A stretch of DNA of 62,610 nucleotides, the filler included. It is 4 parts of 4 records of this genome, joined end to end, with 100 filler letters (N's around TTAATTAATTAA, not from the genome) between each part and the next. Parts side by side here need not be neighbours in the genome. Positions count along the whole stretch, not along the records: positions 44,176 to 62,610 come from SRR31156797_19612; 3 more parts are not named here. One strand, written 5' to 3'. The translations under genes and the position numbers were made by a program. Below the pieces are notes generated by a model, which worked only from the letters and a program-made list of their open reading frames with translations, made no database searches and was not told the origin of the DNA. Below, piece by piece: positions 17,990-61,529 of the stretch (its first letter is position 1; every line of letters begins with the position of its first letter).

Positions 17990-18031
17990 GATTTTATAAA
18001 TTAAATAGACTATAATTTATTGATTTAAAGA

Positions 18032-31173: not shown

Positions 31174-31175
31174 AT

Positions 31176-31442: not shown

Positions 31443-31503
31443 TTTCTGAGCTGCCGGATGTTCACCATATTCGCCCTTGTGCAGTCCAATGCCGCAAGTC
31501 CTC

Positions 31504-31893: not shown

Positions 31894-31914
31894 CTTTCCT
31901 GCTTTTTTTACAAC

Positions 31915-32619: not shown

Positions 32620-32719
32620 NNNNNNNNNNNNNNNNNNNNNNNNNNNNNNNNNNNNNNNNNNNNTTAATTAATTAANNNNNNNNNNNNNNNNNNNNNNNNN
32701 NNNNNNNNNNNNNNNNNNN
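32620..32719. other. Artificial contig spacer
   Basis: N44-TTAATTAATTAA-N44. Confidence 0.99.
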
Positions 32720-33054: not shown

Positions 33055-33257
33055 CGTTCTCTTCCTCCATTCGCCCCGCCGCTTGTTTCGGCGGCTTTTG
33101 TTACAGTTTTATTGTAACACTCCGATGCGGAAACGCCAAAAAAGCGCCCCAACCAATACGTTCCTAGAACGTGCGTGTGCGGTGTCAGAGTCGGAAAACC
33201 GATATCGTTTTCCGTTTCCCATTGCCAAACCGGCAGATCCGCCGTCAATTCGCGGGA

Positions 33258-34139: not shown

Positions 34140-34372
34140 GTTTCTGATCCTCCAAAGGTGTGAAAACGCGGGCGCCAGTTTTTCAGGTTCGCGCGCCGGG
34201 TTCAACCAACTTACTTGCATCTATTCCGCAAGACAGCGGGGCTCAGTTCGGGGTTGCCGCCGCCGAATACGATAAATGGGTGAATCCTACGGTTTTTACT
34301 CGACAAAATTGTATCTCGACGATACCGTAACCCGAAAAACAAAGAGAGAACAACGAAGCGGGGAGGGAATCC

Positions 34373-36682: not shown

Positions 36683-37476
36683 AATTTAGGGAGCGAGCGA
36701 AGACAGCCATGGGGAATCAGGCAGTACGGCGTTTTATCGTGCTGGTCGCGATCTCGGTGATTGCCACCGGATGCATTGGAAAACCAACAACCCGATTGGG
36801 CATGGTCGAAGATCGGGAAACGGGGCTCCAGTTCGGTTCCGTCGTTGACGGAAGCCTTCTTACCGATGCTTCGTTCCACAAGAACAAACGCATCAAAATC
36901 AGGACTCGCAACACCTCCGGTGACCTCGCCTTCGATCTTCACGGATTTACCGACCGGCTGAGCCGGGACTACGCCGCGAAAGGGTACGAGCCCACCACGG
37001 ACGACGATTTCGGCCTGTTGCTTGACGTCAATGTCAAATACAGCGGGCAGATCCAGGAATCCCTGGCGCTTGAATACGGGCTATTGGCGGCGGCCGGCGG
37101 CGGTGTCGCCGGCATGGCAATCCGCAGCGACCAGACTGCCACTGCTGCCGGCGTTCTTACCGGTGCGACCTTCGGCACTATCGCCGGCAGCTACGTGACC
37201 GACGATACCTATATCGTCATTGCCGACGTGACCTTCGCAACCATCAAAGAGCCTCGAAAGACGTCTTCGAAAACGATCACTTTCAGCCGCAGCCTCAAGC
37301 CGCACGAGGACGAGGACGAGCGACAGCAAAAAGAGGAACGGCGGTCCGCGCGTGGGTTCAAAAAAACCTATCAGGTGGAAGTGGCGGTGTTCGCTGGAGG
37401 CCGCAATGCGGTGCAATCGAAAATCGCCGAAGACGTTCGCCAGCGCCTGATCCGCATCGTCGGTGACATTATTTGA
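36679..37476 (+). CDS. TraT-like (complement-resistance family) lipoprotein
   Basis: Lipobox ATGC; RNTSG...L..KGY; glycine-zipper hydrophobic hairpin; D.TY....DV. ATGA overlap with the protease gene. Confidence 0.7.
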   Translation: MKFRERAKTAMGNQAVRRFIVLVAISVIATGCIGKPTTRLGMVEDRETGLQFGSVVDGSLLTDASFHKNKRIKIRTRNTSGDLAFDLHGFTDRLSRDYAAKGYEPTTDDDFGLLLDVNVKYSGQIQESLALEYGLLAAAGGGVAGMAIRSDQTATAAGVLTGATFGTIAGSYVTDDTYIVIADVTFATIKEPRKTSSKTITFSRSLKPHEDEDERQQKEERRSARGFKKTYQVEVAVFAGGRNAVQSKIAEDVRQRLIRIVGDII

Positions 37477-37486
37477 TTGGTAAGAG

Positions 37487-38587
37487 CTAGACGTTGAAGC
37501 GGAAAAGAATCACGTCGCCGTCACGCAGGACATAGTCGCGGCCTTCCTGGCGCATCTTGCCGGCTTCCTTGGCGCCGTGTTCGCCGCCAAGGGCAACGAA
37601 ATCGTCAAACGAAATGGTTTCGGCACAGATGAAACCGCGCTCGAAATCGGTGTGAATGGCGCCGGCGGCGCGCGGTGCGGTCGATCCGCCGCGCACGGTC
37701 CAGGCCCGGCTTTCCTTCGGACCCGTGGTGAAAAAGGTGAGCAGATCGAGAAGATCGTACCCGGCCCGGATGACCTGGCCCAAACCGGTCTCCGCCAATC
37801 CCAGGGATTCCAGAAACTCGGCTTTTTCTTCCGCGTCCGAAAGCTGTGCAATCTCGGCTTCGATGGCGGCCGAGATAACGACGGTTCCGGCGCCCTCGGC
37901 CGCGGCCATTTCGGAGACGGCCTTGGCGTATCCGTTGCCGTCGGCGGCCGATGATTCGTCGACGTTGCAGACGTAAAGCACCCGCTTGGCGGTGAGAAGC
38001 TGAAGGTTGCGGAACTCCTGGCGACGTTCGGGCGGAACTTCGACCTTGCGGGCCGGTATGCCTTGGCGCAAGGCTTCCAGCGCCGGTTCCATGACGACCA
38101 GGCGGTCCCGCGATTCTTTGTCCCCGCCCTTGGCCCGTTTGATGACCGGTTCGATGCGCCGCTCCAGGCTTTCGAGGTCGGACAGCAATAGCTCGGTCGA
38201 CACCACCTCGGCATCGCGTACGGGGTCGATCGAGGATTCGGTATGGGCGATGTTGTCGTCTTCGAAACAGCGCAGCACGTGGATGATCGCATCGACCTCG
38301 CGGATGTTGGACAGGAACTGGTTGCCCAGCCCCTCGCCTTTGCTGGCGCCGCGCACAAGACCGGCGATGTCGACGAACTCAAGGAAGGTCGGCGTCTTTT
38401 TGGCCGATTTGGTGATGGCGAAAACCTGATCCAATCGCGGATCCGGCACCGCCACCCGTCCCGAATTGGGTTCGATGGTGCAAAACGGATAGTTCGCGGC
38501 CTCGGCCTGGGCGGTCTCGGTCAGCGCGTTGAATAGCGTCGATTTGCCGACATTCGGCAAGCCGACAATGCCGCAGTTAAATCCCAT
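37487..38587 (-). CDS. ychF: Redox-regulated ATPase YchF
   Basis: GIVGLPNVGKSTLFNALT, NYPFCTIEPN, DIAGLV and IHTDFERGFI. Confidence 0.98.
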   Translation of the reverse strand: MGFNCGIVGLPNVGKSTLFNALTETAQAEAANYPFCTIEPNSGRVAVPDPRLDQVFAITKSAKKTPTFLEFVDIAGLVRGASKGEGLGNQFLSNIREVDAIIHVLRCFEDDNIAHTESSIDPVRDAEVVSTELLLSDLESLERRIEPVIKRAKGGDKESRDRLVVMEPALEALRQGIPARKVEVPPERRQEFRNLQLLTAKRVLYVCNVDESSAADGNGYAKAVSEMAAAEGAGTVVISAAIEAEIAQLSDAEEKAEFLESLGLAETGLGQVIRAGYDLLDLLTFFTTGPKESRAWTVRGGSTAPRAAGAIHTDFERGFICAETISFDDFVALGGEHGAKEAGKMRQEGRDYVLRDGDVILFRFNV

Positions 38588-39236
38588 TGCCCGGTGTCTT
38601 CTCCGTTTTGATTGCGGCCGGTGTGCCGTCTTTGCCGTCGAGCGCTTCGTCCGGTTTCTTGTGGACCGGAGGTTTCATGATCAAGGCGACCTTGGTCATG
38701 AAACCGGAATCGTCGCCTTCGGCCAGAAAAGGAAAAGCCTGGGCGATGGCGTCGACCAGCTTTTCCACCCACTGGCTGTCGGATTTAGAGAAATCCTTCA
38801 GCACATGACCGACGACACGTTCTTTATCGCCGGGATGGCCGATGCCGATTCTCACCCGCCCATAGTTGGGGCCGATGCGGGAATGGATGGATCGAAGCCC
38901 ATTGTGCCCGGCATGACCGCCGCCACGTTTGACCCTGATCTTGCCGGCGGCGAGATCCAGTTCATCGTGCAGGACGATCACCTTCTCGGGCGGGACCTTG
39001 AAGAAACGAACCGCGCCCAGAACGGCGTCGCCCGACCGGTTCATGAAGGTCATGGGCTTGAAGGCGATCACCTTGTAGCCCAGCACCTCGCCTTCGGCCA
39101 GTTTGCCGTGGAACTTCGTGCGAAAACGCGAGAACCCATGGCGCAGAACGATCTCGTCCAGCGCCATGAATCCCACATTGTGACGGTTCCGGGCGTAGTC
39201 GGATCCCGGGTTTCCGAGGCCGACCACCAGAAGCAT
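38577..39236 (-). CDS. pth: Peptidyl-tRNA hydrolase
   Basis: GLGNPG, RHNVGF, TFMN, GGHNGL-like GHNGLRS and RIGIGHP. Confidence 0.97.
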   Translation of the reverse strand: MLLVVGLGNPGSDYARNRHNVGFMALDEIVLRHGFSRFRTKFHGKLAEGEVLGYKVIAFKPMTFMNRSGDAVLGAVRFFKVPPEKVIVLHDELDLAAGKIRVKRGGGHAGHNGLRSIHSRIGPNYGRVRIGIGHPGDKERVVGHVLKDFSKSDSQWVEKLVDAIAQAFPFLAEGDDSGFMTKVALIMKPPVHKKPDEALDGKDGTPAAIKTEKTPGNGI

Positions 39237-43002: not shown

Positions 43003-43959
43003 TCAAGCGCCGGAATCGCCTGAAGCGTCCGGGCCTTCCAGCGCTTCCGGTTTCGGAAGGGTCCGGTCCGGCGGTACCGTGATGGCCGGGGCCGATTTGC
43101 GGTCGCGACCGCGTTCCAGAATGTCGGCGATTCCATCGACGGCAGCGGTAGCCGCGTATCCGGCGACCACTCCCCAGCGTCCATTCAGGCTGCCGGCCGG
43201 GATGTCATTTACCTGGGCGGCATCACCGATCGGTTCGCCGTCCGGCAGGGCGACCTGCCAGGAAATCGAAACTTCCTGCTGACCGTCGACCGGCGGGGCG
43301 ACACGAACTTCGGCGCTCAGCAGATGGGCTGCCGATTTCTGATCGGCGGCCAGGGGAATGTCCTTGGTTTTCAGGGCTCGCCGAATGGCATTGGCGAGAG
43401 ACGTATTGCCGTCGCCGGGAGCGCCGGTGATACCGGTTAGAAACAGGCCAATGCGCCCGGCCGTTTCGGATTTCGGCAACTCGGCGTCGATTTCGACCAA
43501 TCCGGCAAGGGCTTTGGCCGGAGCCGATCCTATCCGGCGCATGACTCCTGGGTCGGGCCTTTGCCAATCGGTCCAGGCGGCACGCAGTTCCTGAACATGC
43601 AACCCGGTTTTTTCACCGGCCCCGTCGGTCAGTGTCCAGGTGATGGTCAGATTGGCGATATCGGTGCCGGAAGCGCCGATTTGCTCTATCGCGCCTTGCA
43701 GCACAAACCGGCTTGGGGCCCCGGGGTGATGGGTTGCCGTGACACCATAGCCGCCCAGGTTTTCCGCCACCGACCGTGCCAGGGCCTTTGCCGCCGGTTC
43801 GGGGATGCCGGCAACGGGATCAATCCTGACATCGACCGCCAGTTCGGCCAGGGGATAGGCGGCTTTTTCCGGTCCGTGGGCAAAGGGCTGCGGCAACTGG
43901 CCACAGGCTGCCCCAAACAGGAGAGGGATGACGATCAGGAATAAATTAAGCCGCTGCAT
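43003..43959 (-). CDS. Uncharacterised alphaproteobacterial lipoprotein
   Basis: Lipobox AAC-GQLPQPF; GAPGDGN and Q.N.IPAGSL...WG motifs. Confidence 0.7.
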   Translation of the reverse strand: MQRLNLFLIVIPLLFGAACGQLPQPFAHGPEKAAYPLAELAVDVRIDPVAGIPEPAAKALARSVAENLGGYGVTATHHPGAPSRFVLQGAIEQIGASGTDIANLTITWTLTDGAGEKTGLHVQELRAAWTDWQRPDPGVMRRIGSAPAKALAGLVEIDAELPKSETAGRIGLFLTGITGAPGDGNTSLANAIRRALKTKDIPLAADQKSAAHLLSAEVRVAPPVDGQQEVSISWQVALPDGEPIGDAAQVNDIPAGSLNGRWGVVAGYAATAAVDGIADILERGRDRKSAPAITVPPDRTLPKPEALEGPDASGDSGA

Positions 43960-44478: not shown

Positions 44479-45729
44479 TTATTCCGCCGCAGCCGCTTCG
44501 CGTTTGTTCCACTTTTCGGCCTGGTCTTCCCAGTCGTCCATGCGGACGTACGGGTTTTCGCGCGGGTGGACGACCATGTTGGGGTCGACCTCGAGGCCAA
44601 GACCTTCGACGTAGTTGGCAAGGCCGATCCGTTCGATCATCTCGCCGGTGCGTTCGTGTTCGAGCGCGTTCTCGGCATAGAACTCGATGATGTTTTCGGA
44701 CAGTTCCTTGAGCTTCTCATAGTCTTCGTCGGTTTCGAGCCGCATGAAGGGAACCACGCAGATGCCCATCAAATCGCCGATCTGCAGGGTGTGCTTGCCG
44801 CCCAGCAGAATGGTGACGCCGCGTTCCTTGCCGGGCTTCAGGGCCTTGGTAAGGACGTTGATGCAGTGCATGCAACGCACACAGGACGGATTGTCGACTT
44901 CGACCGTATCGTCGTCGTTGAGGCTCATCGCGTTGGTCGGACAGCGCGTGATGACGTTGTCGATGATTTCCTTGCGGCCGCGCTCGGCAACGTACTTCTT
45001 GAATTCGTCCTGGTCGACCTGCATGTCGCCCCGCCAGGTGCCGATGATGGCGCCGTCCGAGCGGTGAATGGCGTCGGCGCAATCGTTCGGGCAGCCGGAG
45101 AATTTGAACTTGAACTTGTACGGCAGCGACGGCCGGTGCAGGTCGTCGATCAAGTTGTTCAGGATCATGCGCATCGAGCGGGCTTCGTCGTAGCACGAGA
45201 ACTCGCACCGGGCGTGTCCGACGCAGGCCTGCGAACTGCGCAGGCACGGCCCGGCGCCGCCCATGTCGAAGCCGATCTCGTTAAGGGCGTCGAACGAGGC
45301 CTGGACCTGTTCGGTCGAGCAGCCCTGGAACATGATGTCGCCGCTTTGACCGTGCAGCGCGATCAGGCCGGTGCCGTGTTCCTCCCAGATGTCGCACATC
45401 TGACGAAGCACTTCGGTGCTGTAGTGATAGCCCGGTGTCGGCATGATGCGAAGGGTATGGAATTCGGCCGATTCAGGGAACTTGTCGGCAACTTCGGAAA
45501 AACGCGGGATGACCCCGCCGCCGTATCCGCGAACACCTACGGTGCCGCCTTTCCAATACCCCTTGATCGTTTCGTAGGAGTACTCGAGCTGACCGAGAAG
45601 ATCCTTCATCCGGTCGGCGTATTGCTTGCCGTCGGATTCCGCGAGCTTTTTGATGTTGGTTACAAAGCTCGGCCACGGCCCTCCTTCGAGCTGGTCGAGC
45701 ATCGGGGTTGCCGGCATTTTTTTCGCCAT
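44479..45729 (-). CDS. dsrA: Dissimilatory-type sulfite reductase alpha subunit, probably oxidative (reverse) type
   Basis: TPMLDQLEGGPWPSFV, GYWKGG, CVGHARC, YKFKFKFSGCPNDC and CVRCMHCIN. HGQSGDIM and GYWKGG resemble rDsrA of sulfur oxidisers. Confidence 0.97.
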   Translation of the reverse strand: MAKKMPATPMLDQLEGGPWPSFVTNIKKLAESDGKQYADRMKDLLGQLEYSYETIKGYWKGGTVGVRGYGGGVIPRFSEVADKFPESAEFHTLRIMPTPGYHYSTEVLRQMCDIWEEHGTGLIALHGQSGDIMFQGCSTEQVQASFDALNEIGFDMGGAGPCLRSSQACVGHARCEFSCYDEARSMRMILNNLIDDLHRPSLPYKFKFKFSGCPNDCADAIHRSDGAIIGTWRGDMQVDQDEFKKYVAERGRKEIIDNVITRCPTNAMSLNDDDTVEVDNPSCVRCMHCINVLTKALKPGKERGVTILLGGKHTLQIGDLMGICVVPFMRLETDEDYEKLKELSENIIEFYAENALEHERTGEMIERIGLANYVEGLGLEVDPNMVVHPRENPYVRMDDWEDQAEKWNKREAAAAE

Positions 45730-52369: not shown

Positions 52370-53356
52370 ATGAAACGTTTATTCGTTGCGGTGTTCGCCG
52401 CGTGTCTCGGCTTTGCATTGGCGCAGCCGGCGCAGGCCGAAAAAGTTCTTCGCATCACCCTGCAACTGCCGATTACCCATCACCTCGGCAAGAACCTCAC
52501 GGCCTTCAAGGACGAGGTCGAGCGCGAGACCAAGGGCGAGATCAAGGTCGAGATCTATCCCTCGGCCCAGCTCTACAAGGACAAGGAAGTGCCGCAGGCG
52601 GTGTCGTCGGGCGCCGTTGAAATGGGCGTCGCATCGATCACCCGTTTTGCCGGGACGATCCCGGCGGTCGATATCTTCTACGTTCCTTTCACCTTCCCGA
52701 CCTGGGATCTGGTGACCAAGGCGACGGCGCCGGGAAGCACGGTTCGCGGGCCGATCGACGCCGAGGTTCTGAAAACCGGTGCCCGTATCCTGTGGTGGCA
52801 GGCCTATGGCGGCGCCATTCTTCTCAGCAAGGGCGATCCGATCGTGACGCCGGCCGACATGAAGGACAAGAAGGTCCGCGTCTTCGGCAAGACGCTGGGC
52901 GAATTCGTCAAGTCCGTCGGTGGCGCGCCGGCGCTTGTTTCCGGTTCGGAACAGTTCCTGGCCTATCAGCGCGGCACGGTCGATGCCGGCATGACCGGCG
53001 TCACCGCCGTCGAAAAGCGTAAGCTTTTCCAGGTCATGGACTATCTGACCGTCACCAACCATGCCGATATCGAGTTCGTCGTGCTGATCAACGAAAAGGT
53101 CTGGCAGGGCCTGACCGACGGCCAGCGGGCGATTGTCGACAAGGCGGCCAAGCGCGTCGAAAAGGAACTGCGCGATGCGATGGGCAAGCTCGAGGCCGAC
53201 GCATTCGCCGCCGTTCGCGACAAGATCAAGGTCATCGAACTGACGCCGGATCAACTCGCCGATTGGCAGAAGTCGACCGCGAGCGTGATCGAAACCTATA
53301 TCAAAACCGCCGGACCGCTCGGCAAACAGCTTGTCGAGGCGGCGAAAAAACTCTAA
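52370..53356 (+). CDS. dctP: TRAP transporter substrate-binding protein
   Basis: Signal peptide, EIYPSAQL, DMKDKKVRV, AYQRGTVD and W..L...R. Confidence 0.93.
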   Translation: MKRLFVAVFAACLGFALAQPAQAEKVLRITLQLPITHHLGKNLTAFKDEVERETKGEIKVEIYPSAQLYKDKEVPQAVSSGAVEMGVASITRFAGTIPAVDIFYVPFTFPTWDLVTKATAPGSTVRGPIDAEVLKTGARILWWQAYGGAILLSKGDPIVTPADMKDKKVRVFGKTLGEFVKSVGGAPALVSGSEQFLAYQRGTVDAGMTGVTAVEKRKLFQVMDYLTVTNHADIEFVVLINEKVWQGLTDGQRAIVDKAAKRVEKELRDAMGKLEADAFAAVRDKIKVIELTPDQLADWQKSTASVIETYIKTAGPLGKQLVEAAKKL

Positions 53357-53419
53357 ACAGCCGGCCGGGGCGGCGGAATCGTTTCCGCCGCTCCAGCACT
53401 TTTGTTGATCCGGCCCCAA

Positions 53420-53923
53420 ATGCTTAACTTCGTCGAACGCCTCAGCGAAATCTGCGGCAAGCTGGCCGCGGGCATGTTTTTCGTCGTCGGCGGGATGATC
53501 ACCTACGAGGTGGTCGCCCGTTACGTCTTTCTTGCGCCGACGGTCTGGGCCGAGGAAATATCCCGCTTCGCGCAGATCTGGGCGACCTATCTGGCCGCCG
53601 CCTATGTCCTGAAAAACCGCAACCTCATCCGCATCGACCTGTTGACCGGGCGACTGAATGCGGCTTGGCGCCGCTTTTTCGAGGCCCTGGCCCTGGTCTT
53701 CATCGGCGTTTTCTGCATCGTTGCCATCACTTACGGGACCGGCATCGTCGCCGAATCGATCGAAATGGGCCGTGCCACGTCGACCATGTTGGCGGTTCCG
53801 CGTTGGATGACCGAAAGCGCCGTGCCGATCGGTTTTGCCATCCTGCTGCTGCAATGCCTGGCCGAACTGGGCCGGGTTTTCACCGACCCGTCCTACGGAA
53901 CGGCAAGCGGGGATGAAACATGA
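53420..53923 (+). CDS. dctQ: TRAP transporter small permease
   Basis: EVVARYVF..PTVWAEEISR, IRIDLL and four TM helices. Confidence 0.92.
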   Translation: MLNFVERLSEICGKLAAGMFFVVGGMITYEVVARYVFLAPTVWAEEISRFAQIWATYLAAAYVLKNRNLIRIDLLTGRLNAAWRRFFEALALVFIGVFCIVAITYGTGIVAESIEMGRATSTMLAVPRWMTESAVPIGFAILLLQCLAELGRVFTDPSYGTASGDET

Positions 53924-55191
53924 CCGCGCTGATCATCCTGCTGGTGCTGCTCGGCCTGCTGCTGGCCGGAATTCCGGTCGCCTTTGCCTTGGGCGGGCTC
54001 GGCCTGATCCTGATGTGGCTGGGCGATATTTCGCCGGTGATGGTGCCGCAGGCCTTGTACAGCACGGCCGACAACTTCGTCCTGCTGGCGGTGCCGTTGT
54101 TCCTGCTGATGTCGAACGTTCTGCTCAAGGGCGGCGTCGGACGCGATCTTTTCAACGCGGTTCAAACCTGGGTCGGACATTGGCCGGGCGGCCTTGCCGT
54201 CGCGACGATCATTTCCTGCGCCCTTTTTTCGGCGATCTCGGGTTCGTCGGTGGCCACCGCCGCGACCATCGGCACGGTGGCGATCCCGGAAATGATCGGC
54301 CGCGGCTATCACCGGCCGTTCGTTCTTGGACTGCTGGCGGCGGGCGGAACGCTGGGCATCCTGATCCCGCCGTCGATTCCGATGATCGTCTATGGCGTCA
54401 TTACCGAGGAATCCATCGTCGATCTGTTTCTTGCCGGGGTCGGTCCGGGGCTATTGCTGTCGGGTATTTTCATCCTGTTCAGTCTCGGTTATGCCCGTTT
54501 CGGCGGCGGCTATACGCCGACGGAAAAAGCGACCTGGCAGGAACGCTCGGCCGCCACCTTGCGGGCCCTGCCGACGGCCATCCTCGCGGTCATCGTCATC
54601 GGCGGCATCTATGCCGGCGTCTTCACACCGACGGAATCAGCCGGCGTCGGGTTCGCCGTTTCGCTGGTTATCGTCTTCGCGCTTGGCACCATGACCTGGG
54701 AAAAACTGAAGGACGCGGTCCTCGATGCCATGCGCACGACGGTGACCATCTTCCTGATCATCGGCGGTGCCAAGGTGTTCGGCAAGGCGATCACGCTGTA
54801 TCGCATTCCGCAGGATATCTCGACGGCGATTGCCGCCAATATCCCCGAGGCCGGCCTGTTCATCCTGATCGTCTGCGGCGTCCTGCTGATCATGGGCTGT
54901 TTCCTCGAATCGCTGTCCATGTTGCTGATCATGGTGCCGGTGCTTTTGCCATCGCTGATGGCGCTCGGCATCGATCCGATCTGGTTCGGGGTGATCTTCG
55001 TCATCATGATCGAATGCGCCCTGATCACGCCGCCGGTCGGCCTCAACCTGTTCGTCATCCAGGCGGTCGGGAATGTCACCATATCCGAGGTTCTGCGTGG
55101 CGTCTGGCCGTTCATCCTGATGCTTTTCGCGACCGTTGCCATCGTCTATTTCATTCCCGACGTCGCCCTGTATATTCCGTTCAAACTATAG
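53920..55191 (+). CDS. dctM: TRAP transporter large permease
   Basis: SGSSVATAA, GILIPPSI, FTPTES and ITPPVGLNLF. Confidence 0.95.
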   Translation: MTALIILLVLLGLLLAGIPVAFALGGLGLILMWLGDISPVMVPQALYSTADNFVLLAVPLFLLMSNVLLKGGVGRDLFNAVQTWVGHWPGGLAVATIISCALFSAISGSSVATAATIGTVAIPEMIGRGYHRPFVLGLLAAGGTLGILIPPSIPMIVYGVITEESIVDLFLAGVGPGLLLSGIFILFSLGYARFGGGYTPTEKATWQERSAATLRALPTAILAVIVIGGIYAGVFTPTESAGVGFAVSLVIVFALGTMTWEKLKDAVLDAMRTTVTIFLIIGGAKVFGKAITLYRIPQDISTAIAANIPEAGLFILIVCGVLLIMGCFLESLSMLLIMVPVLLPSLMALGIDPIWFGVIFVIMIECALITPPVGLNLFVIQAVGNVTISEVLRGVWPFILMLFATVAIVYFIPDVALYIPFKL

Positions 55192-55214
55192 AATCTCTGC
55201 ACCGGGAGGGTGCC

Positions 55215-56078
55215 ATGCAATCATCGCCGGCCGAGAGACTGCGCACCCTGTTGGCGCGTCCCGGCATATTGGTCATGCCCTGCTGTTACGACGCCTTCTC
55301 GGCGCGATTGATCGAACGGGCCGGTTTCCCCCTGACCTTCATGAGCGGTTTCGCCGTTTCGGCGGCGCGTCTGGCGGTGCCGGACACCGGCCTGATCTCG
55401 TTCGCCGAGATGCTCGATCAGGGGCGCAACATCTGCTCGGCGGTGTCGATCCCGGTCTTCGGCGACGGCGATACGGGTTACGGCAACGCGCTCAACGCCA
55501 AACGCACGGTTCGCGAATACGCCCGGGCCGGATTCGCCGGCATCATGATCGAGGATCAGGTCGCGCCGAAACGATGCGGGCACACCCGCGGCAAGCAGGT
55601 GATCGGTTTCGATATGGCCTGCCAACGCCTGCAGGCCGCCGTCGATGCGCGTGACGAAGGGGCCGATATCGTGATCATGGCGCGCACCGATGCGCGCGAA
55701 ACCGACGGCATCGACGAAGCCCTGCGCCGCATCCGCGCCTTCGCCGACATCGGCGCCGACGTGCTGTTCCTCGAGGCGCCGCGCTCGGAAGACGAAATGA
55801 AAGCCTTCTGCGAGGCCGTTCCCGGCCCGAAAATGGCCAACATGGTCGAACAGGGCGCAACACCGGTGCTGCCGCCCGACCGGCTGGCCGACATCGGCTA
55901 TAAGATCGCGGCCTATCCGCTGACCCTTCTTCTCGCCGCCATTCCCGCCATCGAGCGGGCGCTGAAATCCATTGCCGAAGGGAAAACGCCGGAAGGCCTG
56001 GCGACCTTCGCCGAGCTGCAGGATGTTGTCGGTTTCCCGGAATATTTCGAAGCCGAAAAACGGTATTCGACGGAATAA
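55215..56078 (+). CDS. Isocitrate lyase/PEP mutase family protein (CPEP-mutase/dimethylmalate-lyase-like)
   Basis: YDAFSAR, MSGF, DGDTGYG, IEDQ..PKRCGH, ARTDA and ANMVEQG. ATG at 55215 after GGGAGG. Confidence 0.92.
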   Translation: MQSSPAERLRTLLARPGILVMPCCYDAFSARLIERAGFPLTFMSGFAVSAARLAVPDTGLISFAEMLDQGRNICSAVSIPVFGDGDTGYGNALNAKRTVREYARAGFAGIMIEDQVAPKRCGHTRGKQVIGFDMACQRLQAAVDARDEGADIVIMARTDARETDGIDEALRRIRAFADIGADVLFLEAPRSEDEMKAFCEAVPGPKMANMVEQGATPVLPPDRLADIGYKIAAYPLTLLLAAIPAIERALKSIAEGKTPEGLATFAELQDVVGFPEYFEAEKRYSTE

Positions 56079-56190
56079 TGAACCGGCCTCTGGTCCAAAA
56101 ACCCAATAATCCCGGGATTGCCTGCCGGTCCGCGCGTCCGCATACTCGGGTTTTATCGGCGCCGTCGAATGCCGGCGGAATCGCGCGGAC

Positions 56191-57261
56191 ATGACCAAAA
56201 GGAGGAGGAGCCTGGACTTGGGCGGTATGGACGACAATCAAAAAGCGGACCTTTCAATCGCGGCCGATGCGACCCGCATCCGGGCCGATCTGGTCCGGCT
56301 CGGCCTGGCCGGACCGAGGGAAAACCCGCGCATCGAACCGCTCGCCGGCGGCGTTTCGTCGGACATCTTCCGGGTCGATCTCGCATCGGGTCCGGTCTGC
56401 ATCAAACGCGCCCTGGCGAAACTGAAGGTCGCCGCCGATTGGCGGGCGCCGGTCGAACGCAACCAATATGAATTCGCCTGGATGCGGGCGGCGGCCCGGG
56501 TCGAACCGACGGCGGTTCCGGAACTGCTGGCCGAGGATGCCGAAGCCGGCCTTTTTGTCATGCGCTTTCTCGATCCCGCCGACCATCCGGTTTGGAAAGC
56601 ACAGCTGCTGGACGGCCACGCAATTCCCGAAACGGCGCACGCCGTTGGCTTGCGGATCGGCCACATCCACGCCAGCACCGCTGGCGACGATACCGTCCGC
56701 GAGGCCTTCGCGACCGACCACATTTTCCATCCGATCCGGCTCGAACCCTATCTGCTGGCGACGGCACAGGCGCACCCGAAAGTCGCCGCGCAATTGGAAA
56801 GCCTGGCCGAAACAACGTTGGCCACCAAGAAGGCGCTGGTTCACGGCGATGTCAGCCCGAAGAACATCCTGGTCGGACCCGACGGGCCGGTGTTCCTCGA
56901 CGCCGAATGCGCCTGGTACGGCGATCCGGCCTTCGACCTGGCCTTCTGCCTCAATCACCTGCTGCTCAAATGCCTGTGGAAACCGGCGGTTACCGGCGAC
57001 TACCTTGGCTGTTTCGATGCCATGACCGTGGCCTACCTGTCGACGGTGTCGTGGGAGCCGCCTGACGAACTGGAACGGCGCACCGCGGCGCTATTGCCGG
57101 CCCTGTTCCTGGCCCGCGTCGACGGCAAATCCCCGGTCGAATACCTGACCGACGAGGCCGACAAGAACAGGGTGCGCCGGGTCGCGCTGGCCTTGCTCCA
57201 ATCCGAAGTCGAAACCCTGGAATCCATAAGAAACGCCTGGAATAAGGAGATGCACACGTGA
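56191..57261 (+). CDS. APH/methylthioribose-kinase-like small-molecule kinase
   Basis: LAGGVSSDIF, IKRAL..L.V..DW.AP.ER...E, HGDVSPKNIL and LDAECAWYGDPAFD. Start may instead be 56227. Confidence 0.85.
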   Translation: MTKRRRSLDLGGMDDNQKADLSIAADATRIRADLVRLGLAGPRENPRIEPLAGGVSSDIFRVDLASGPVCIKRALAKLKVAADWRAPVERNQYEFAWMRAAARVEPTAVPELLAEDAEAGLFVMRFLDPADHPVWKAQLLDGHAIPETAHAVGLRIGHIHASTAGDDTVREAFATDHIFHPIRLEPYLLATAQAHPKVAAQLESLAETTLATKKALVHGDVSPKNILVGPDGPVFLDAECAWYGDPAFDLAFCLNHLLLKCLWKPAVTGDYLGCFDAMTVAYLSTVSWEPPDELERRTAALLPALFLARVDGKSPVEYLTDEADKNRVRRVALALLQSEVETLESIRNAWNKEMHT

Positions 57262-58547
57262 ATCCCAACATCATCACAACGGTACGCGGCAGGCGGGTAT
57301 GGGATTCGCGTGGGCGCCCGACGGTCGAAGTGGAAATCGGGCTGGCCGGCGGCAAGACCGGCCGTGCCATCGCCCCAGCCGGCGCATCGACCGGCGCCGG
57401 CGAGGCGTTGGACCTGCGTGACGGCGGCGAAACCTTCGGCGGATACGGCGTTGAAAAGGCGCTGGCCAATATCAACGGCGAAATCAGGCTGACCATTGCC
57501 GGTCTCGATGCCCGCGATGGCGCCGAGATCGACCGCACCCTGATCGAACTCGACGGCACGCCGAACAAAAGCCGTCTCGGCGGCAACGCCATCATTGCCG
57601 TTTCGCTGGCCTTGCTTCACGCCGCCGCGGCTGCCGCCGACGAACCCCTTTGGCGCTATCTGGGCGGTGACGGCGTGAAGACGATTCCGTTGCCGGAAAT
57701 TCAGATTTTCGGCGGCGGCGCCCATGCCAGCACCCGGATCGATATCCAGGACTTCATGGTGACGATGCCGGGCGCGTCGAGCTTCGACGAGGCGATGGCC
57801 TGGACCGCCGAGGTCTATCGCAAGGCCGGGGAAATCATGGCCGATTCCGGCCGCCTGCGCGGGGTGGCCGACGAAGGTGGCTTCTGGCCGGTGTTCGAAA
57901 CCAACGAGGAAGGGCTGGGCCTGCTGGTGCAGGCGATCGAAAAGGCCGGCCTGGTGCCCGGCGAGCAGGCGGCCATCGCGCTTGATATCGCCGCCACCGA
58001 ATTCGGGAAAAACGGCCGCTACAAACTGGCGCTTGAGGAACGCGAATTGGATTCCGACGGTCTATGTGAACTGCTGATCGGCTGGATCGACCGCTATCCC
58101 ATCGTTTCGATCGAAGATCCCCTGGGCGAGGACGACGTTGAAGGCACGCGGCGCTTCACGGAAGCCGTCGGCGATCGGGTTCAGATCGTCGGCGACGATT
58201 TCGTCGTGACGGACGCCTCGCGCATCAAGGAAGCGGCAAAGCTGGGTGCCTGTAACTGTGCCCTCATCAAGCCCAACCAAGCCGGCACCGTTTCCGAAAC
58301 CAAGGCCGCCGTCGACGCCGCCAAGGATGCCGGTTGGGGCGCCATCGTATCGGCCCGGTCGGGCGAGACCGAGGACGTGTCGATCGTCCATCTGGCCGTC
58401 GGCTGGGGCGTGTCGCAGCTCAAGGTCGGAGCCTTCGCGCGGGCCGAACGCATGGCCAAGTGGAACGAGGCCCTGCGCATCGAGGAACTGCTGGGCGCCG
58501 ATGCCAGGTTTCCGGGGAACGCACCGTTCGAAAGGTTCGGGCAATAG
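57258..58547 (+). CDS. Enolase-family protein, divergent paralogue
   Basis: DSRGRPTVEV, GASTG, DEGG, IEDP, GDD, IKPNQ, RSGETED, KVG and ER.AK.N. GTGA overlap with the kinase stop. Confidence 0.92.
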   Translation: MNPNIITTVRGRRVWDSRGRPTVEVEIGLAGGKTGRAIAPAGASTGAGEALDLRDGGETFGGYGVEKALANINGEIRLTIAGLDARDGAEIDRTLIELDGTPNKSRLGGNAIIAVSLALLHAAAAAADEPLWRYLGGDGVKTIPLPEIQIFGGGAHASTRIDIQDFMVTMPGASSFDEAMAWTAEVYRKAGEIMADSGRLRGVADEGGFWPVFETNEEGLGLLVQAIEKAGLVPGEQAAIALDIAATEFGKNGRYKLALEERELDSDGLCELLIGWIDRYPIVSIEDPLGEDDVEGTRRFTEAVGDRVQIVGDDFVVTDASRIKEAAKLGACNCALIKPNQAGTVSETKAAVDAAKDAGWGAIVSARSGETEDVSIVHLAVGWGVSQLKVGAFARAERMAKWNEALRIEELLGADARFPGNAPFERFGQ

Positions 58548-58623: not shown

Positions 58624-59202
58624 ATGAAAGGGGACGTCGGGATGAGGCTCCCATATTCGCTTTTCGGTTTGCTGTCTTTGGTCATTCTCGCCGGTTGCGC
58701 CGCGCCTGCCGCGATGCCGCCGCCGCAACAGCAATTGCCGCCCGTCGGCGGTCCTGTGTATCGGCTCGATGTCGCCACGGTTGAGATTTTTCGACCGGCG
58801 GCACAACCGGCCGGAACGGTGATCGACATGTCGGTCGCTGTCGAACAGTACCTGCGCGACCACCTTCTGGCGGTCGGAACCAGCGGACGGGTGCGCGCCA
58901 GCATCAACGACGCGGCCGTGCGCCAATCAGTCATGCGCCGAACCGCCCCGGGCGGCACGTCGTTCCAGCGGGTCCGCCAATACGACGGCATGGTTCATGT
59001 CCGTATCGACGCCACCGACCGCTCGACCCAACGGGCCGCCTTTGCCGGCGGTTCGGCCAGCCGCAGCCAGGCGGCGGACGCCAATATTCCGGTCGATCAG
59101 CAACAGCGGATGGCCAGTGATATGGCCGACGCCCTGATGTTGGATTTCGAGGCCAGCCTGTCGGCCGATGTCAACCGTAGGTTGGGTGCATTCCTGCGCT
59201 AG
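58624..59202 (+). CDS. Uncharacterised lipoprotein
   Basis: Lipobox LAGC followed by a Pro/Gln linker. Confidence 0.65.
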   Translation: MKGDVGMRLPYSLFGLLSLVILAGCAAPAAMPPPQQQLPPVGGPVYRLDVATVEIFRPAAQPAGTVIDMSVAVEQYLRDHLLAVGTSGRVRASINDAAVRQSVMRRTAPGGTSFQRVRQYDGMVHVRIDATDRSTQRAAFAGGSASRSQAADANIPVDQQQRMASDMADALMLDFEASLSADVNRRLGAFLR

Positions 59203-59741
59203 ACGGTTCCGGTAAATCCGGAGATTGGTGCGGCAGGTCCAGACCGTTTCGGGGTAAACACGAAACCCTCGATCGGGACGATTTTGCTTCGTGGCCAGGC
59301 AGGCTTCGAAATGCGATGTGCGAAGCATCGAACGAGAAGGCCAACGCCGCCACGGAGCAAAAGAATCCGGCCGAAGGTTGGTATTCGGGCCCATCGTCCG
59401 CGTTGCGGCGCTTGTCCAATGGCCCGAACATTGCCCCGCGCGCCGCGCCGATTCCGGTGGCCCCATCCGTTCCCATCAAATTGCCTCCGACTCACCCGGA
59501 CGCGCCCTGAAGGTCAGAAGTCCTGATCTCCCTTGAATTCTCCTTTATACCTCCTATCTGTCTGACGTCTTTTGTGGGGGAAATTCTCGAAATAATTGTT
59601 TCTTTTTGGGGGCGGGTTGTGAAGCATTCTTTTAAGGGGTTCGCGGGAGTTTTGCGCGAGCAGGCGATAAAACAGTTTGAGTTGCACAAAAATTACATTG
59701 GGCGTCGGAATGAATCCTGGGGCAAAGGCCGCTTGGAGGCT

Positions 59742-61529
59742 ATGCGGACATTGCGTATCGGGCTGGGCGCCCTGTCGCTGGTTTTTGCCTCATCGCAGGC
59801 CTTCGCATATGACGTTACAGAAGATGACGGAGCAACCGCGGCAACGGAGCCGTATAAAACGATCACAGTTCAAGCATCGGAATTTATAAACGGAGACAGT
59901 CTTGTTTTAGGTAGAAGCGGATCGCCCGCCTTTGCCGTCGGCGATACCATCGAGATTACGTTGAGTGGCGGCGCGACTTTTGCCGACAGCACCATCGTTC
60001 TTGAGAACTCCTCAGGCGGTGCCGGCACCGGCGCCCTTACGGACGCCGTCGTGCAAACGGGTTCTCCGGCCGGCAAGTCGACGATCAGATACACCCTGCA
60101 GAACAACAGCGGAAACATTGCTACAACAGTAGGGTATATTTTGAGCGGCGATACTATTGCAGGTCAACGCGTTAACTTTAACCTGCCTCAGGTTCACGGC
60201 AGGGATATCTATATTACTTTTACGGTGCGTAATTCGGGAGGCGCGTTGAAAGGCAGCGTGCGGCATTTGCTGTTTGACAATACTCTGGCTCGAGGCTCAA
60301 CCGCAGCTGAATCCCAAAGCGCGGTCCAAAATGTGTTGGCGACACACATTCGAAACATGACGGCCCAGAGTGTCGGGCTATCCGGTTTGATGACGGGACG
60401 CGGATTTGGCGGCGGCAACGCCGGCAACCTGAGCGGTCTGTTCGGAAATTCCGAACCCCTGAACAAGTTTATGGCCGCAGCTCCGGAGATCAGCCTGCCC
60501 GTCTCAGTGGAGATGTTGGGCGGGCAAGGCAATTTCGCCGCAAGTTTGAATCAAATAAAAGCCTGGGACGGAAGCCTTGGCATCGGCGAACAGAAGTCCG
60601 GCGGCATGCCGCCAAGCCAACTTGTCGATATGGACACTCCTTTCAATGTCTGGATCAAGGGGCGTTGGCAAGGCTTTACGGATACCCGTGGCGGATCAAA
60701 GGGTGAGGGTGATTTCGGTTTGCTTATGACGGGGGCGGACTACCGCTATAGCGAAAACACCCTGATCGGCCTTCTCGCACAGTTTGATTTATACAATCAA
60801 ACCGCCACCGGCCAGGACAGCAGAGGCAAGGGACATGGCTGGATGTTTGGGCCCTATCTTGTCACGCGCCCGGTCGACAATCTGATTTGGGATGCCCGGA
60901 TCGCCTGGGGAATGTCGAAAAACAAGATCGATCCATCGGGCTTTGGCTGGGAGAAATTCGACGGTGAGCGTTGGCAGTTCGAGACAAACCTGACCGGCGA
61001 ATTTGAATACCAGGACTGGGATATCTTCCCGCAGTTGGGGATGACCTACTTCGAGGAAGAACAGCAGGCTTACACCAACCCCAACGCAAGCATTAACGGA
61101 ATCGAAGTTGGATCGCAGACTGTCGGGGTCGGCAATCTTAGCTTCGGCCCCGAGGTTTCACGTTCCTGGGAACAGTCGGAGGACATCACCTTACGTCCTT
61201 TTGCGGCCTTCAGAGGAATATGGGATTTCGAAGCCCCCGACATCGCCCACACCGACGGCAGCAGCATCAACACGGAAAAGCTGCGGGCGAGAGTCGAGTT
61301 CGGAGGGGACGTCACTTTTAAAGACAGCAGCAGCGTATATGCCAAATATACCTATGACGGGATCGGTCTGGCCGGCTACGAGGCGCACAGCCTGGAACTC
61401 ATCGCCAGCACTCCGGTTGATTTCGGGTTCTTGCCGCTTGGCGGTAATTTGAAAAGTTCCTTTAGCCAGTCCGTAAGTGAAATTAACACAAGCCAATTCA
61501 AGCTTAACTTGGATGTGCCCTTGAATTAG
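59742..61529 (+). CDS. Autotransporter beta-domain outer-membrane protein with short passenger
   Basis: Signal peptide (AFA), beta-rich passenger, then W.KGRW, GADYR..E..LIGLLAQFD and GWMFGPY amphipathic strands. Confidence 0.8.
   Translation: MRTLRIGLGALSLVFASSQAFAYDVTEDDGATAATEPYKTITVQASEFINGDSLVLGRSGSPAFAVGDTIEITLSGGATFADSTIVLENSSGGAGTGALTDAVVQTGSPAGKSTIRYTLQNNSGNIATTVGYILSGDTIAGQRVNFNLPQVHGRDIYITFTVRNSGGALKGSVRHLLFDNTLARGSTAAESQSAVQNVLATHIRNMTAQSVGLSGLMTGRGFGGGNAGNLSGLFGNSEPLNKFMAAAPEISLPVSVEMLGGQGNFAASLNQIKAWDGSLGIGEQKSGGMPPSQLVDMDTPFNVWIKGRWQGFTDTRGGSKGEGDFGLLMTGADYRYSENTLIGLLAQFDLYNQTATGQDSRGKGHGWMFGPYLVTRPVDNLIWDARIAWGMSKNKIDPSGFGWEKFDGERWQFETNLTGEFEYQDWDIFPQLGMTYFEEEQQAYTNPNASINGIEVGSQTVGVGNLSFGPEVSRSWEQSEDITLRPFAAFRGIWDFEAPDIAHTDGSSINTEKLRARVEFGGDVTFKDSSSVYAKYTYDGIGLAGYEAHSLELIASTPVDFGFLPLGGNLKSSFSQSVSEINTSQFKLNLDVPLN

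Follow-up and report, generated by a model that had tools for sequence, protein, structure and literature searches.

A conserved pair of a predicted MtnK-fold kinase and an enolase paralogue that probably supplies central metabolism with a glycerate-like acid, next to a separate TRAP-lyase module

A kinase gene and the enolase paralogue gene that follows it form a conserved core, a unit separate from the TRAP transporter and lyase genes that precede them in the window (the whole stretch of DNA analyzed, 62,610 nucleotides). The six genes, which the original prediction had joined in a single catabolic pathway, are two separate modules, adjacent by chance of lineage. The reading in which, with these two modules, the kinase would phosphorylate O2 of a 2-hydroxy acid and the paralogue would beta-eliminate to phosphoenolpyruvate (PEP) or an analogue was given a probability of about 0.6.

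Gene content and layout of the locus

All six predicted genes were present as plus-strand open reading frames and matched the families named for them (Table 1). DctP (328 aa) has a signal-peptide-like N-terminus. The spacing between dctP and dctQ was 45 nt, dctQ and dctM overlapped at an ATGA, and the lyase followed dctM after 23 nt, with GGGAGG ahead of its ATG. Kinase and enolase overlapped at a GTGA, with AAGGAG 8 nt upstream; this overlap and ribosome-binding site indicate that the enolase is likely translationally coupled to the kinase. The short gaps that had been described thus held at the overlaps and between dctM and the lyase, but not between lyase and kinase, where the gap was 112 nt to ATG 56191 and 148 nt to ATG 56227. 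Judging from homologues, the true kinase start is probably TTG 56218 or ATG 56227.

Table 1. Features of the locus, with positions counted along the whole window
Feature	Position	Strand	Evidence or remark
dsrA	44479-45729	-	TIGR02064, 571 bits
dctP, TRAP solute-binding protein DctP	52370-53356	+	PF03480, 188 bits
dctQ, TRAP small permease	53402-53923	+	PF04290, 106 bits
dctM, TRAP large permease	53920-55191	+	PF06808, 356 bits; TIGR00786, 388 bits (cut-off 268)
ICL/PEP-mutase-superfamily C-C lyase, 287 aa	55215-56078	+	PF13714, 165 bits
APH-family, MtnK-fold kinase	56191-57261	+	PF01636, 62 bits; MTRK TIGR01767, 63 bits (cut-off 275)
Enolase paralogue, 429 aa	57258-58547	+	TIGR01060, 479 bits (cut-off 300)
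Conserved hypothetical ORF, 192 aa, lipoprotein-like N-terminus	58624-59202	+	Downstream of enolase

The last open reading frame gave no match in Pfam and NCBIfam scans. Among the pair loci compared, it was found at the same position in L001 only (78% identity), and its membership of the kinase-enolase unit is uncertain. Neither kdsA nor ftsB was present among the scanned neighbors of the window enolase. The contig had been described as carrying oxidative dsrAB; dsrA was identified, but dsrB was not found beside it.

Conservation of the kinase-enolase pair

Across several bacterial phyla, 160 related loci were compared, and in 157 of them an enolase gene adjoined the kinase gene. In the first set, 80 loci kept from at least 591 genomic relatives of the kinase, the enolase lay downstream of the kinase in 78; in the second, drawn from a marine alphaproteobacterial clade, the pair was found in 79 of 80. 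With heuristic start calls, the two genes were separated by no more than 152 nt in 68 of 76 pairs and overlapped by 4 nt in 26 of the 76. The pair also occurred in Rhodococcus, Methylobacterium, Rhizobium, Azospirillum, Cupriavidus, Roseibium and Paracoccus, and in the archaeon Haladaptatus, on a haloarchaeal plasmid. The predicted kinase-enolase unit was therefore borne out by its recurrence in both sets (78/80 and 79/80), and the loss of adjacency in other genomes that had been named as grounds for abandoning it did not occur in the relatives. The literature searched held no published account of the pair, in agreement with the original prediction, which knew of no characterized pathway with this gene set.

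The TRAP-lyase module

The TRAP and lyase genes lay beside the pair in only 2 of the 160 loci, the window and its close relative L001. Three other genomes (L189-L191) carried orthologous TRAP and lyase genes without the pair, followed by genes on the opposite strand; their DctP orthologues (60-61% identity) were encoded upstream of the lyase, and their DctM orthologues were 72% identical. Eight loci orthologous for the lyase were found, and kinase and enolase were present only in L184, on the same contig as L001.

These distributions bear on the single pathway that was originally proposed, in which the TRAP system would import one acid to be processed by lyase, kinase and enolase in one route. 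The genes are co-directional, no terminator-like site was found on the plus strand between lyase and kinase, the lyase-kinase gap in L001 is 12 nt, one contig of run X1 covers dctM, lyase and kinase, and L003, L013, L025, L035 and L096 have other TRAP systems close to the pair. However, the proteins of those systems are only 23-36% identical to those of the window, and the rarity of this lyase and TRAP type beside the pair, together with its self-contained occurrence in L189-L191, makes a single pathway improbable.

Module 1 (dctPQM and lyase, the lyase being its last gene) would import an organic acid for C-C cleavage. By analogy with the relatives of its proteins, the putative substrate is a 2-hydroxy-dicarboxylate resembling malate, an alkylmalate or isocitrate. 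The best solved relatives of DctP scored only about 100 bits and included C4-dicarboxylate-binding DctP proteins. For the lyase the best solved match was petal death protein (1zlp, 201 bits), ahead of 2-methylisocitrate lyase (165 bits) and 2,3-dimethylmalate lyase (164 bits); it shares with this group the catalytic KRCGH loop ('APKRCGHTRG' in the translation). It scored below both equivalog cut-offs, at 256 bits for prpB (TIGR02317, cut-off 354) and 229 bits for CPEP mutase (TIGR02319, cut-off 420). Unlike the methylisocitrate lyase group it comes with a dedicated TRAP transporter, and no methylcitrate-cycle genes were seen among its neighbors. Phosphonate chemistry, one of three options offered originally, is unlikely given the C-C-lyase loop, the petal death and methylisocitrate relatives and the score below the CPEP-mutase cut-off.

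The kinase

The structure model of the kinase (pLDDT 94) matched MtnK structures as best folds (TM 0.80-0.84, 14-17% identity), so the MtnK-like assignment was upheld, and MtnK structures were the sole solved proteins recovered by sequence search. On the model, the protein is predicted to be an MtnK-fold (APH superfamily) small-molecule kinase, of a family without a name. This family comprised 930 cluster representatives at E <= 1e-30; across 181 sequences, conservation was at least 97% for the catalytic motifs K72, E94, HGDxSPKN and LDAEC and for a further motif, RxDGKSPVEY, and many basic residues were conserved. MtnK itself (TIGR01767; PDB 2pyw, 2olc) is the top structural match and shares the protein-kinase-like catalytic motifs, but the kinase is about 50 residues shorter, scores far below the MtnK cut-off (Table 1), and is partnered by an enolase, whereas the partners of MtnK are methionine-salvage enzymes.

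MtnK-type kinases normally phosphorylate the anomeric hydroxyl of a sugar. The kinase and the paralogue might thus act non-consecutively, for example with an inhibitor-insensitive or regulatory enolase and a kinase that, like MtnK, phosphorylates some unrelated sugar; the solved relatives of the kinase, only MtnK, PsiK and LxmK, agree with this. This is highly improbable given that 157 of 160 loci hold the pair, frequently with the two genes overlapping, and general tblastn queries and Pfam scans of the neighbors gave no mtnA/mtnB-type partners.

The kinase falls outside both bacterial glycerate kinase families searched, PF02595 and PF05161, and members of both occur alongside it. A member of a conventional glycerate kinase family was found in 10 of 10 related genomes (9 MOFRL, 1 PF02595); the pair is therefore not gap-filling.

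The enolase paralogue

A canonical enolase was present besides the linked copy in 9 of 10 related genomes, with TIGR01060 scores of 590-686 bits for canonical and 420-495 bits for kinase-linked copies. The canonical copies formed one side of a branch in a quick tree (99% SH-aLRT). The linked copy is thus a second enolase, 100-200 bits lower than the canonical one and partnered by an APH-fold kinase, as expected of the altered, non-housekeeping enolase that had been proposed; the case of this being the only enolase in the genome, which had been considered as a refutation, did not arise in relatives. By extension, the window's own organism would also be expected to carry a canonical enolase. One genome (G010) had a second copy of the paralogue, with no kinase within 1.5 kb.

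Homology to enolase (EC 4.2.1.11) was full-length (408 bits to a solved enolase), with both domains present. The metal ligands, three in number, and K345, E211, K396, R374, S375, H159 and S39 were kept in 74-77 of 77 linked sequences. The alteration was evident against solved enolases, where the window sequence reads 'diqDfmv' for 'diqEfmv' and 'vsArsge' for 'vsHrsge', i.e., Asp for Glu and Ala for His. These changes, E168D (77/77) and H373A (74/74), were invariant in linked sequences, including distant bacterial and archaeal ones, whereas E168 and H373 were kept in 9 of 9 canonical copies examined, among them copies from the same genomes. In yeast enolase numbering, Glu168 and His373 are presumably the residues around the substrate C3 hydroxyl. 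The paralogue further differs from enolase at the second residue ahead of Glu211 (Ala for Gly), at 382 (Gly for Ala) and at Thr397 (Val or Ile instead), the last two lying near the C3 group; the signature in window numbering is D165, A204, A366, G382 and V390. The pocket is enlarged, and in the main clade a new Trp lies beside Glu211. The carboxylates of E211 and D168, beside C3, offer no obvious fit to an anionic leaving group.

Proposed reaction and candidate substrates

The kinase would use ATP to phosphorylate O2 of a small D-2-hydroxycarboxylate with a leaving group at C3. The paralogue, which retains all of the enolase machinery for two Mg2+ ions (Lys345 as base, Glu211 as acid, Lys396, and Arg374/Ser375 as phosphate site), would then remove the C2 proton and expel the C3 group, and the product would be PEP or a 3-substituted analogue. 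The original prediction's 2-O-phosphorylation followed by beta-elimination stays the best mechanism, although the order of the reactions, the phosphorylated position, the substrate and the product are all deduced from homology and gene order. The invariant replacements on the C3 side suggest that the substrate is perhaps not ordinary 2-phosphoglycerate, or is handled differently. Another C3-substituted lactate or a longer aldonate is a plausible substrate at rather less than even odds, with sulfolactate taking up a small part of this; D-glycerate itself is a tentative candidate of only slightly lower weight, and the remainder falls outside this scheme.

A D-2-hydroxyacid dehydrogenase (hydroxypyruvate-reductase-like) was found in 21 of 80 main-clade loci, the gene order on two Rhizobium plasmids was ppc-dehydrogenase-kinase, and 2 loci had pyruvate kinase next to the pair. 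Directly downstream of the pair, marine-clade loci carried a 2,4-diketo-3-deoxy-sugar-acid hydrolase homologue (34/80 loci) and SDR genes (31-36/80). The pair was directly preceded by uxuA in 3 loci, with an in-frame fusion in P0297, and accompanied in Haladaptatus by an HpcH aldolase and MR/MLE dehydratases. The neighbors are very varied and many of the pairs are solitary, which makes gene context weak evidence. Nearly all contexts suit plain D-glycerate; the altered residues would then need another explanation. The dehydrogenase, ppc, pyruvate kinase and sugar-acid contexts point to a small hydroxy acid that feeds PEP.

The conversion of plain glycerate to PEP, which had been set against the proposal from the start, is a serious rival, though still a tentative one. 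As a special case of the preferred reading, a new APH-fold D-glycerate 2-kinase and a dedicated 2-phosphoglycerate enolase would complete routes from sugar acids, glyoxylate or hydroxypyruvate. The diketo-hydrolase and SDR operons and the uxuA contexts would be expected to end in D-glycerate, the Haladaptatus enzymes, the dehydrogenase and the ppc and pyruvate kinase neighbors fit, and the enolase lies above the TIGR01060 cut-off with both catalytic residues kept. Yet the genomes tested already hold a conventional glycerate kinase (10/10) and a canonical enolase (9/10), and the replacement of E168 and H373 in all linked copies, bacterial and archaeal, is hard to reconcile with an unchanged substrate.

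The enlarged pocket with its Trp gained beside Glu211 would accommodate an ATP-coupled aldonate dehydratase, in which the kinase would make a 2-phospho-aldonate (from gluconate, mannonate or xylonate, for example) and the paralogue would yield the enol phosphate of a 2-keto-3-deoxy acid, a 3-substituted PEP. Self-contained operons of Paracoccus and Roseibium, with sugar dehydrogenases, a hydrolase and an ABC transporter and no classical dehydratase, are in line with it, as are PQQ sugar dehydrogenases in 9 loci and, in L041, a lactonase immediately upstream. It is nevertheless unlikely: classical dehydratases stand beside the operon in L118 and L131, as does uxuA in its 3 loci, an enzyme that uses the product is not known, and linked enolases from widely differing gene contexts share 60-70% identity and the same pocket, as would suit one common small metabolite.

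Sulfolactate, the first of the original options, is another special case of the preferred reading, in which (S)-3-sulfolactate would be converted to 2-phospho-3-sulfolactate and then to PEP and sulfite, the ComA-type reaction reversed. ComA forms phosphosulfolactate from PEP and sulfite, has reportedly been called 'an enolase that is not an enolase', and to our knowledge is not homologous to enolase. The proposal would share with ComA, in the reverse direction, enolate chemistry on a 2-phospho C3 acid, whereas no feature specific to sulfonates was found in the pair. The enolase changes sit at the C3 substituent, (S)-sulfolactate by reasoning shares its spatial configuration with D-glycerate, its release by the diketo-hydrolase route on a 6-sulfo sugar is conceivable, and the window also has dsrA. 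In L146 and on an annotated Paracoccus seriniphilus plasmid, a cluster of SuyAB, a TTT transporter, an SlcC-like protein, ComC and an exporter adjoins the pair operon, but these were the only sulfonate genes near the pair (1/160 loci and the plasmid), and the TTT binding protein adjoining the pair is only 26% identical to that of the SuyAB cluster. No recurrent sulfite exporter or sulfite dehydrogenase was seen among the loci examined, and two acidic residues stay beside C3. The similarity of the dehydrogenase partner to SlcC-like proteins is generic (150-164 bits, against 169.5 bits for its best solved-structure match), and the Arg-Ser loop that binds anions in the SerA/SlcC group is missing from it; section 22 of PMC6303947 describes this loop for the SerA clade, with SlcC in or beside it. 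Specific support was wanting, and sulfolactate is unlikely.

Relation to known routes

Glycerate 2-kinase followed by enolase operates in the non-phosphorylative Entner-Doudoroff, serine-cycle and glucarate routes. The pair resembles these in the proposed 2-O-phosphorylation of a 2,3-dihydroxy C3 acid with elimination to PEP, and in having a hydroxypyruvate-reductase-like dehydrogenase, ppc and sugar-acid enzymes as neighbors, but the paired enolase is not the canonical one. The kinase and the second enolase are a widespread, unstudied pair, through which a glycerate-like acid probably enters central metabolism.

Gene content of the window

The original prediction described six plus-strand genes in the window, and these were read in the sequence as open reading frames, with each family backed by scans (see table). 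Its account of the junctions was likewise confirmed: dctQ and dctM overlap in ATGA, 23 nt precede the lyase, and kinase and enolase overlap in GTGA with AAGGAG. The domains PF03480, PF04290 and PF06808 fell on three adjoining genes, as in a TRAP DctPQM system. The widest gap in the row was that between lyase and kinase, at 112 nt to ATG 56191 or 148 nt to ATG 56227, and contained no terminator-like site on the plus strand; going by homologues, we suggest that the kinase may start at ATG 56227. Independently assembled contigs, from a run that is the probable source of the window DNA, spanned dctM, lyase and kinase, and then kinase, enolase and the DNA 3' of it. A seawater metagenome contained a relative with about 95% identity. 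The genes 5' of dctP carried bactofilin (a sub-threshold stretch), adenylate-cyclase and S41-protease domains.

Coordinates of features in the window and in related loci
Feature	Locus	Coordinates	Strand	Basis or remark
dsrA	window	44479-45729	-	571 bits, above curated cut-off
dctP	window	52370-53356	+	PF03480
dctQ	window	53402-53923	+	PF04290
dctM	window	53920-55191	+	PF06808
ICL/PEP-mutase-family lyase	window	55215-56078	+	family scans
APH-family kinase	window	56191-57261	+	family scans
Enolase	window	57258-58547	+	family scans
192-aa ORF, downstream of enolase	window	58624-59202		no family match; conserved in L001 (closest relative) only, 78% identity
651-aa protein, after 192-aa ORF	window	59574-61529		autotransporter beta-domain
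VOC gene insert	L002	8984-9376		
VOC gene insert	L028	8992-9378		
VOC gene insert	L033	8993-9412		
VOC gene insert	L052	4430-4825		
uxuA, 5' of kinase	L150	8807-9958		
uxuA, 5' of kinase	L108	7079-8233		
uxuA, 5' of kinase	L124	1584-2738		
Enolase, altered type	L198 (Falsihalocynthiibacter, genome G010)	C1:2632565-2633815		no kinase within 4.2-kb locus

No dsrB was recognised beside dsrA, and a 318-aa ORF at 43003-43959 was without a family match. The spacer at 18062-18161, which joins two contigs, consists of a run of N, TTAATTAATTAA and a run of N. The part to its left (1-18061) had a GC content of 0.26-0.32 and held panB, panC, topA and xerC-like genes; the part to its right, where the kinase-enolase finding wholly lies, had a GC content of 0.46-0.64, mostly 0.50-0.64. 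It is very likely that each part derives from an organism of its own, and the bin may hence contain contamination.

Separation of the TRAP-lyase module from the kinase-enolase pair

The six genes had been read as a single pathway, and the comparison of loci divided them into two modules instead. Among the loci compared, a TRAP system of the window's type and the lyase joined the pair in the window and in its closest relative alone (L001, identity 74-86%). Close lyase orthologues were found in eight loci. In three of these (L189-L191), orthologous dctPQM genes stood directly 5' of the lyase (dctP 60-61%, dctQ 45-49% and dctM 72% identity), kinase and enolase were absent, and the following genes lay on the opposite strand; in four of the eight, the lyase occurred without a window-type TRAP system. 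With TRAP system and lyase standing without the pair in L189-L191, the six-gene pathway was given up, and the original interpretation is supported in part: kinase and enolase do form a genuine unit, widespread and so far uncharacterised, whose enolase is unusual. Other TRAP, TTT or ABC importers recurred near the pair, from subfamilies unrelated to the window's TRAP system.

The lyase scored below the cut-offs of the PrpB model TIGR02317 (256 bits, cut-off 354), the carboxy-PEP mutase model TIGR02319 (229 bits, cut-off 420) and the PEP mutase model TIGR02320 (103 bits, cut-off 320). Its best solved relatives were petal death protein, methylisocitrate lyases and dimethylmalate lyase, and it carries a KRCGH cysteine loop, which we take to be a mark of C-C lyases in the ICL/PEP-mutase superfamily. 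Scores under the mutase cut-offs, together with the lyase-type loop, make the phosphonate chemistry that had been put forward for this region unlikely. DctP was only distantly related to solved binding proteins, C4-dicarboxylate binders among those. We read the TRAP-lyase module as import and C-C cleavage of some hydroxy-dicarboxylate, lying beside the pair by chance or local convenience.

Conservation and spread of the pair

A kinase search across one genome per species gave at least 591 confirmed relatives. In the best 80 of these (the main clade, which includes the window), the enolase was found downstream of the kinase at 78 loci, and the remaining two end at a contig edge. These 80 loci came from Alpha-, Beta- and Gammaproteobacteria, Vicinamibacterales, Nitrospira, Methylomirabilales and Thermoleophilia. 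By heuristic start calls, kinase and enolase were at most 152 nt apart in 68 of 76 and overlapped by 4 nt in 26 of 76. A second scan started from the kinase on a Paracoccus plasmid; it yielded 80 loci (the marine clade), most from marine Alphaproteobacteria, and the enolase was present in 79. The pair was also found on replicons of Rhizobium, Rhodococcus, Methylobacterium, Azospirillum, Cupriavidus, Roseibium, Paracoccus and the archaeon Haladaptatus. At E <= 1e-30, the kinase family had 930 cluster representatives (50% identity), and its members come from Proteobacteria, Acidobacteria, Actinobacteria, Nitrospira, Methylomirabilales and haloarchaea.

Present annotation names the enolase 'eno, phosphopyruvate hydratase, glycolytic process' and the kinase 'aminoglycoside phosphotransferase family protein'; kinase names in the source annotation and Atlas clusters were generic, as were those of the dehydrogenase partner described below. 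In the openly accessible papers searched, no account was found of the pair, of a sulfolactate kinase, or of 2-phospho-erythronate, -threonate or -tartrate, and no mention of the pair was found in PMC12421959, PMC6303947 or PMC6336799.

An enolase paralogue with two altered active-site residues

The window enolase scored 479 bits against TIGR01060 (cut-off 300). Nine of ten related genomes, from five phyla and including that of the closest relative, held a canonical enolase (590-686 bits with the same model) besides the copy linked to the kinase (420-495 bits). The tenth, a Nitrospira MAG, was fragmentary and yielded just a part of the linked copy. The nine canonical copies made up one side of a branch with 99% support when a quick maximum-likelihood tree was built; the midpoint root of this tree is unreliable because of the long branch of L098, an Enterobacter chuandaensis plasmid locus.

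In yeast numbering, we take Asp246, Glu295 and Asp320 to be the metal ligands, Lys345 and Glu211 to be catalytic, and Arg374/Ser375 to form the phosphate site. Comparison with solved enolases showed that the window enolase retains the metal ligands, Lys345, Glu211, Lys396, His159, Ser39, Arg374 and Ser375, as do 74-77 of the 77 linked copies compared. Glu168 was replaced by Asp in 77 of 77 and His373 by Ala in 74 of 74; all 9 canonical copies examined had both Glu168 and His373. Further exchanges were fixed relative to the canonical copies: Ala for Gly two positions ahead of Glu211, Gly for Ala at window residue 382, and Val for Thr397; in the main clade, Trp also replaces the Ala that follows Glu211. 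Asp168, Ala373, Gly382 and Val or Ile397 were present too in the remote linked copies from Rhodococcus, Methylobacterium and Haladaptatus (identity 41-46%), whereas the canonical copies of the same genomes had Glu, His, Ala, and Thr or Ala at these places. The rows of this last comparison of linked and canonical copies include some loci twice (e.g. L001, L184 and L087).

Glu168 and His373 of the yeast enzyme lie beside the C3 hydroxyl of 2-phosphoglycerate, with the acid Glu211. On these positions and the residues retained, the proton-abstraction and phosphate-binding apparatus therefore appears intact, and only the leaving-group side rebuilt. To our knowledge, enolase is a single-function family with invariant catalytic residues. 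The paralogue passes the family model and keeps the catalytic core, yet two residues regarded as invariant in the family differ; it is therefore filed as a variant inside the enolase family, distinct from the housekeeping copy, and not as 'the' enolase.

Enolase-like genes also occurred in other arrangements. The complete Falsihalocynthiibacter genome had three enolase genes, one canonical and two altered, and a kinase was absent from the 4.2-kb locus of one altered copy (L198). On the Enterobacter plasmid (L098, 6202-16835), a distant kinase homologue (41% identity) was divergent from an enolase-like 'hypothetical protein' (35% identity) with Glu211 changed to Lys and His373 to Gly. The two lie within an apparent biosynthetic cluster that includes a U32 peptidase, an aminotransferase, an iron-containing redox enzyme, an M14 peptidase and an MFS transporter.

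The kinase

The kinase model, built on 30 homologues, had a mean pLDDT of 94. Its best structural matches were methylthioribose kinases (TM 0.80-0.84, identity 14-17%), followed by PsiK and the lanthipeptide kinase LxmK; the top 12 among the matches listed were MtnK chains (TM 0.76-0.84, query-normalised). The fold is thus shared with 5-methylthioribose kinase MtnK, but the curated model TIGR01767 excludes the pair's kinase (63 bits, cut-off 275), and general scans of the neighbours recognised no MtnA or MtnB, the methionine-salvage partners. For Pfam, APH matched above its cut-off (62 bits), Fructosamin_kin and RIO1 were sub-threshold, and PF02595 (Gly_kinase) and PF05161 (MOFRL) gave no match; neither of these known bacterial glycerate kinase families takes in the kinase, and both occur elsewhere in the related genomes. 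Conserved to at least 97% in 181 kinase sequences were a glycine-rich loop, Lys72, Glu94, HGDxSPKN, LDAEC and a C-terminal RxDGKSPVEY. The same holds for many basic residues, in keeping with an anionic substrate.

Fused forms were noted among database proteins of the kinase family. P0310, P0308, P0282 and P0324 look like frameshifted reads through kinase and then enolase, and P0386 and P0296 like gene-call joins. The sole genuine-looking in-frame fusion was P0297, a 720-aa UxuA-kinase with a full mannonate dehydratase (387 bits to PDB 4eac), which could alternatively have arisen through loss of a stop codon. For P0291, no solved structure matched its N-terminal 690 residues.

Gene contexts of the pair

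The gene caller was GC3-based and heuristic and missed known genes, so the neighbour counts below are lower bounds; part of the neighbours were judged by tblastn alone. In the main clade, the pair was often solitary, and a D-2-hydroxyacid dehydrogenase was the only partner recurring across phyla (21 of 80 loci, co-directional in L030 and L031). Two Rhizobium plasmids had LysR, ppc, dehydrogenase and kinase in order with the enolase nearby, and in Rhodococcus the order was FAH, dehydrogenase, enolase, kinase, FAH. A lactonase lay directly 5' of the pair in L041, and pyruvate kinase adjoined it in two loci. Four Burkholderiales loci had a glyoxalase/VOC gene of 128-139 aa inserted between kinase and enolase (see table); L065 and the Rhizobium plasmids also have VOC-family genes next to the enolase.

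In the marine clade, 34 of 80 loci had a homologue of L-2,4-diketo-3-deoxyrhamnonate hydrolase after the pair (277 bits to PDB 8gsr), 31-36 of 80 had SDR dehydrogenases there, and 11 had a sugar ABC transporter. Classical sugar-acid dehydratases stood beside some of the pair operons, and uxuA (mannonate dehydratase) lay directly 5' of the kinase in three marine loci. Together, the contexts describe routes ending in a small hydroxy acid, with PEP-using enzymes next.

Proposed mechanism and candidate substrates

Homology and gene coupling lead us to give a probability of roughly 0.6 to a two-step mechanism, in which the kinase would phosphorylate O2 of a D-configured 2-hydroxy acid bearing a C3 leaving group, and the paralogue would then run an enolase-type elimination to PEP or a 3-substituted analogue. 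At somewhat less than even confidence, the linked enolases may act on a substrate that is not 2-phosphoglycerate, which would be a first within the enolase family proper. They would then be 2-phospho-acid lyases, either expelling another group from C3 or carrying a C3 substituent, and the dedicated MtnK-fold kinase would complete a two-step route into PEP metabolism that is so far undescribed.

Within the two-step mechanism, D-glycerate was given about one third of the weight as the substrate. It suits almost every context, but a conventional glycerate kinase was already present in all ten related genomes (nine MOFRL, one PF02595) and a canonical enolase in nine, and D-glycerate gives no reason for the invariant loss of Glu168 and His373. 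If the substrate were a 2-phospho-aldonate, the pair would be an ATP-coupled dehydratase, and the larger pocket and new Trp would be accounted for; this reading was weakened by the classical dehydratases adjoining several pair operons and by a pocket that is identical across very different contexts. Other C3 substituents (thiol, amino, alkyl-hydroxy) are further candidates.

Sulfolactate, an option of the original prediction, is stereochemically sensible, and an island of SuyAB, SlcC and ComC adjoins the pair operon in Paracoccus seriniphilus and one further locus. On the P. seriniphilus plasmid (L103, record 31034-38665), the complete sulfolactate-type cluster lay a few kb from the pair operon, with small and large UxuA-family subunits like SuyAB, a TTT transporter, a SerA-like hydroxyacid dehydrogenase, an Ldh-family ComC-like dehydrogenase and a YeiH-type exporter. 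At 42-46% identity, the recurrent dehydrogenase partner at first seemed a relative of a sulfolactate dehydrogenase. Section 22 of PMC6303947 describes an Arg-Ser anion-binding motif in the beta3-alpha3 loop of the SerA clade/SlcC group; at the aligned place the dehydrogenase partners had W-H or C-W, and the Paracoccus SlcC-like enzyme V-R-N-R. Because the similarity is generic and the anion loop is absent from the partners in the alignment, the SlcC link, the single specific-looking one, was dropped as support, and no sulfite-handling gene recurred near the pair. Sulfolactate is left with no specific support.

Implications for PEP metabolism

A large enolase clade alters two residues regarded as invariant in the same way, and always together with one uncharacterised kinase. 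If the substrate is the same as that of the classical route, the kinase would belong to a novel class of glycerate 2-kinases, and the enolase would be a natural one that does without Glu168 and His373; if it is different, both the reaction and the route to PEP would be new. With either outcome, the pair is a good target for enzymology. Current annotations of both genes hide this, and the metabolic networks reconstructed for many bacteria from soil and sea are hence probably in error or have gaps here.
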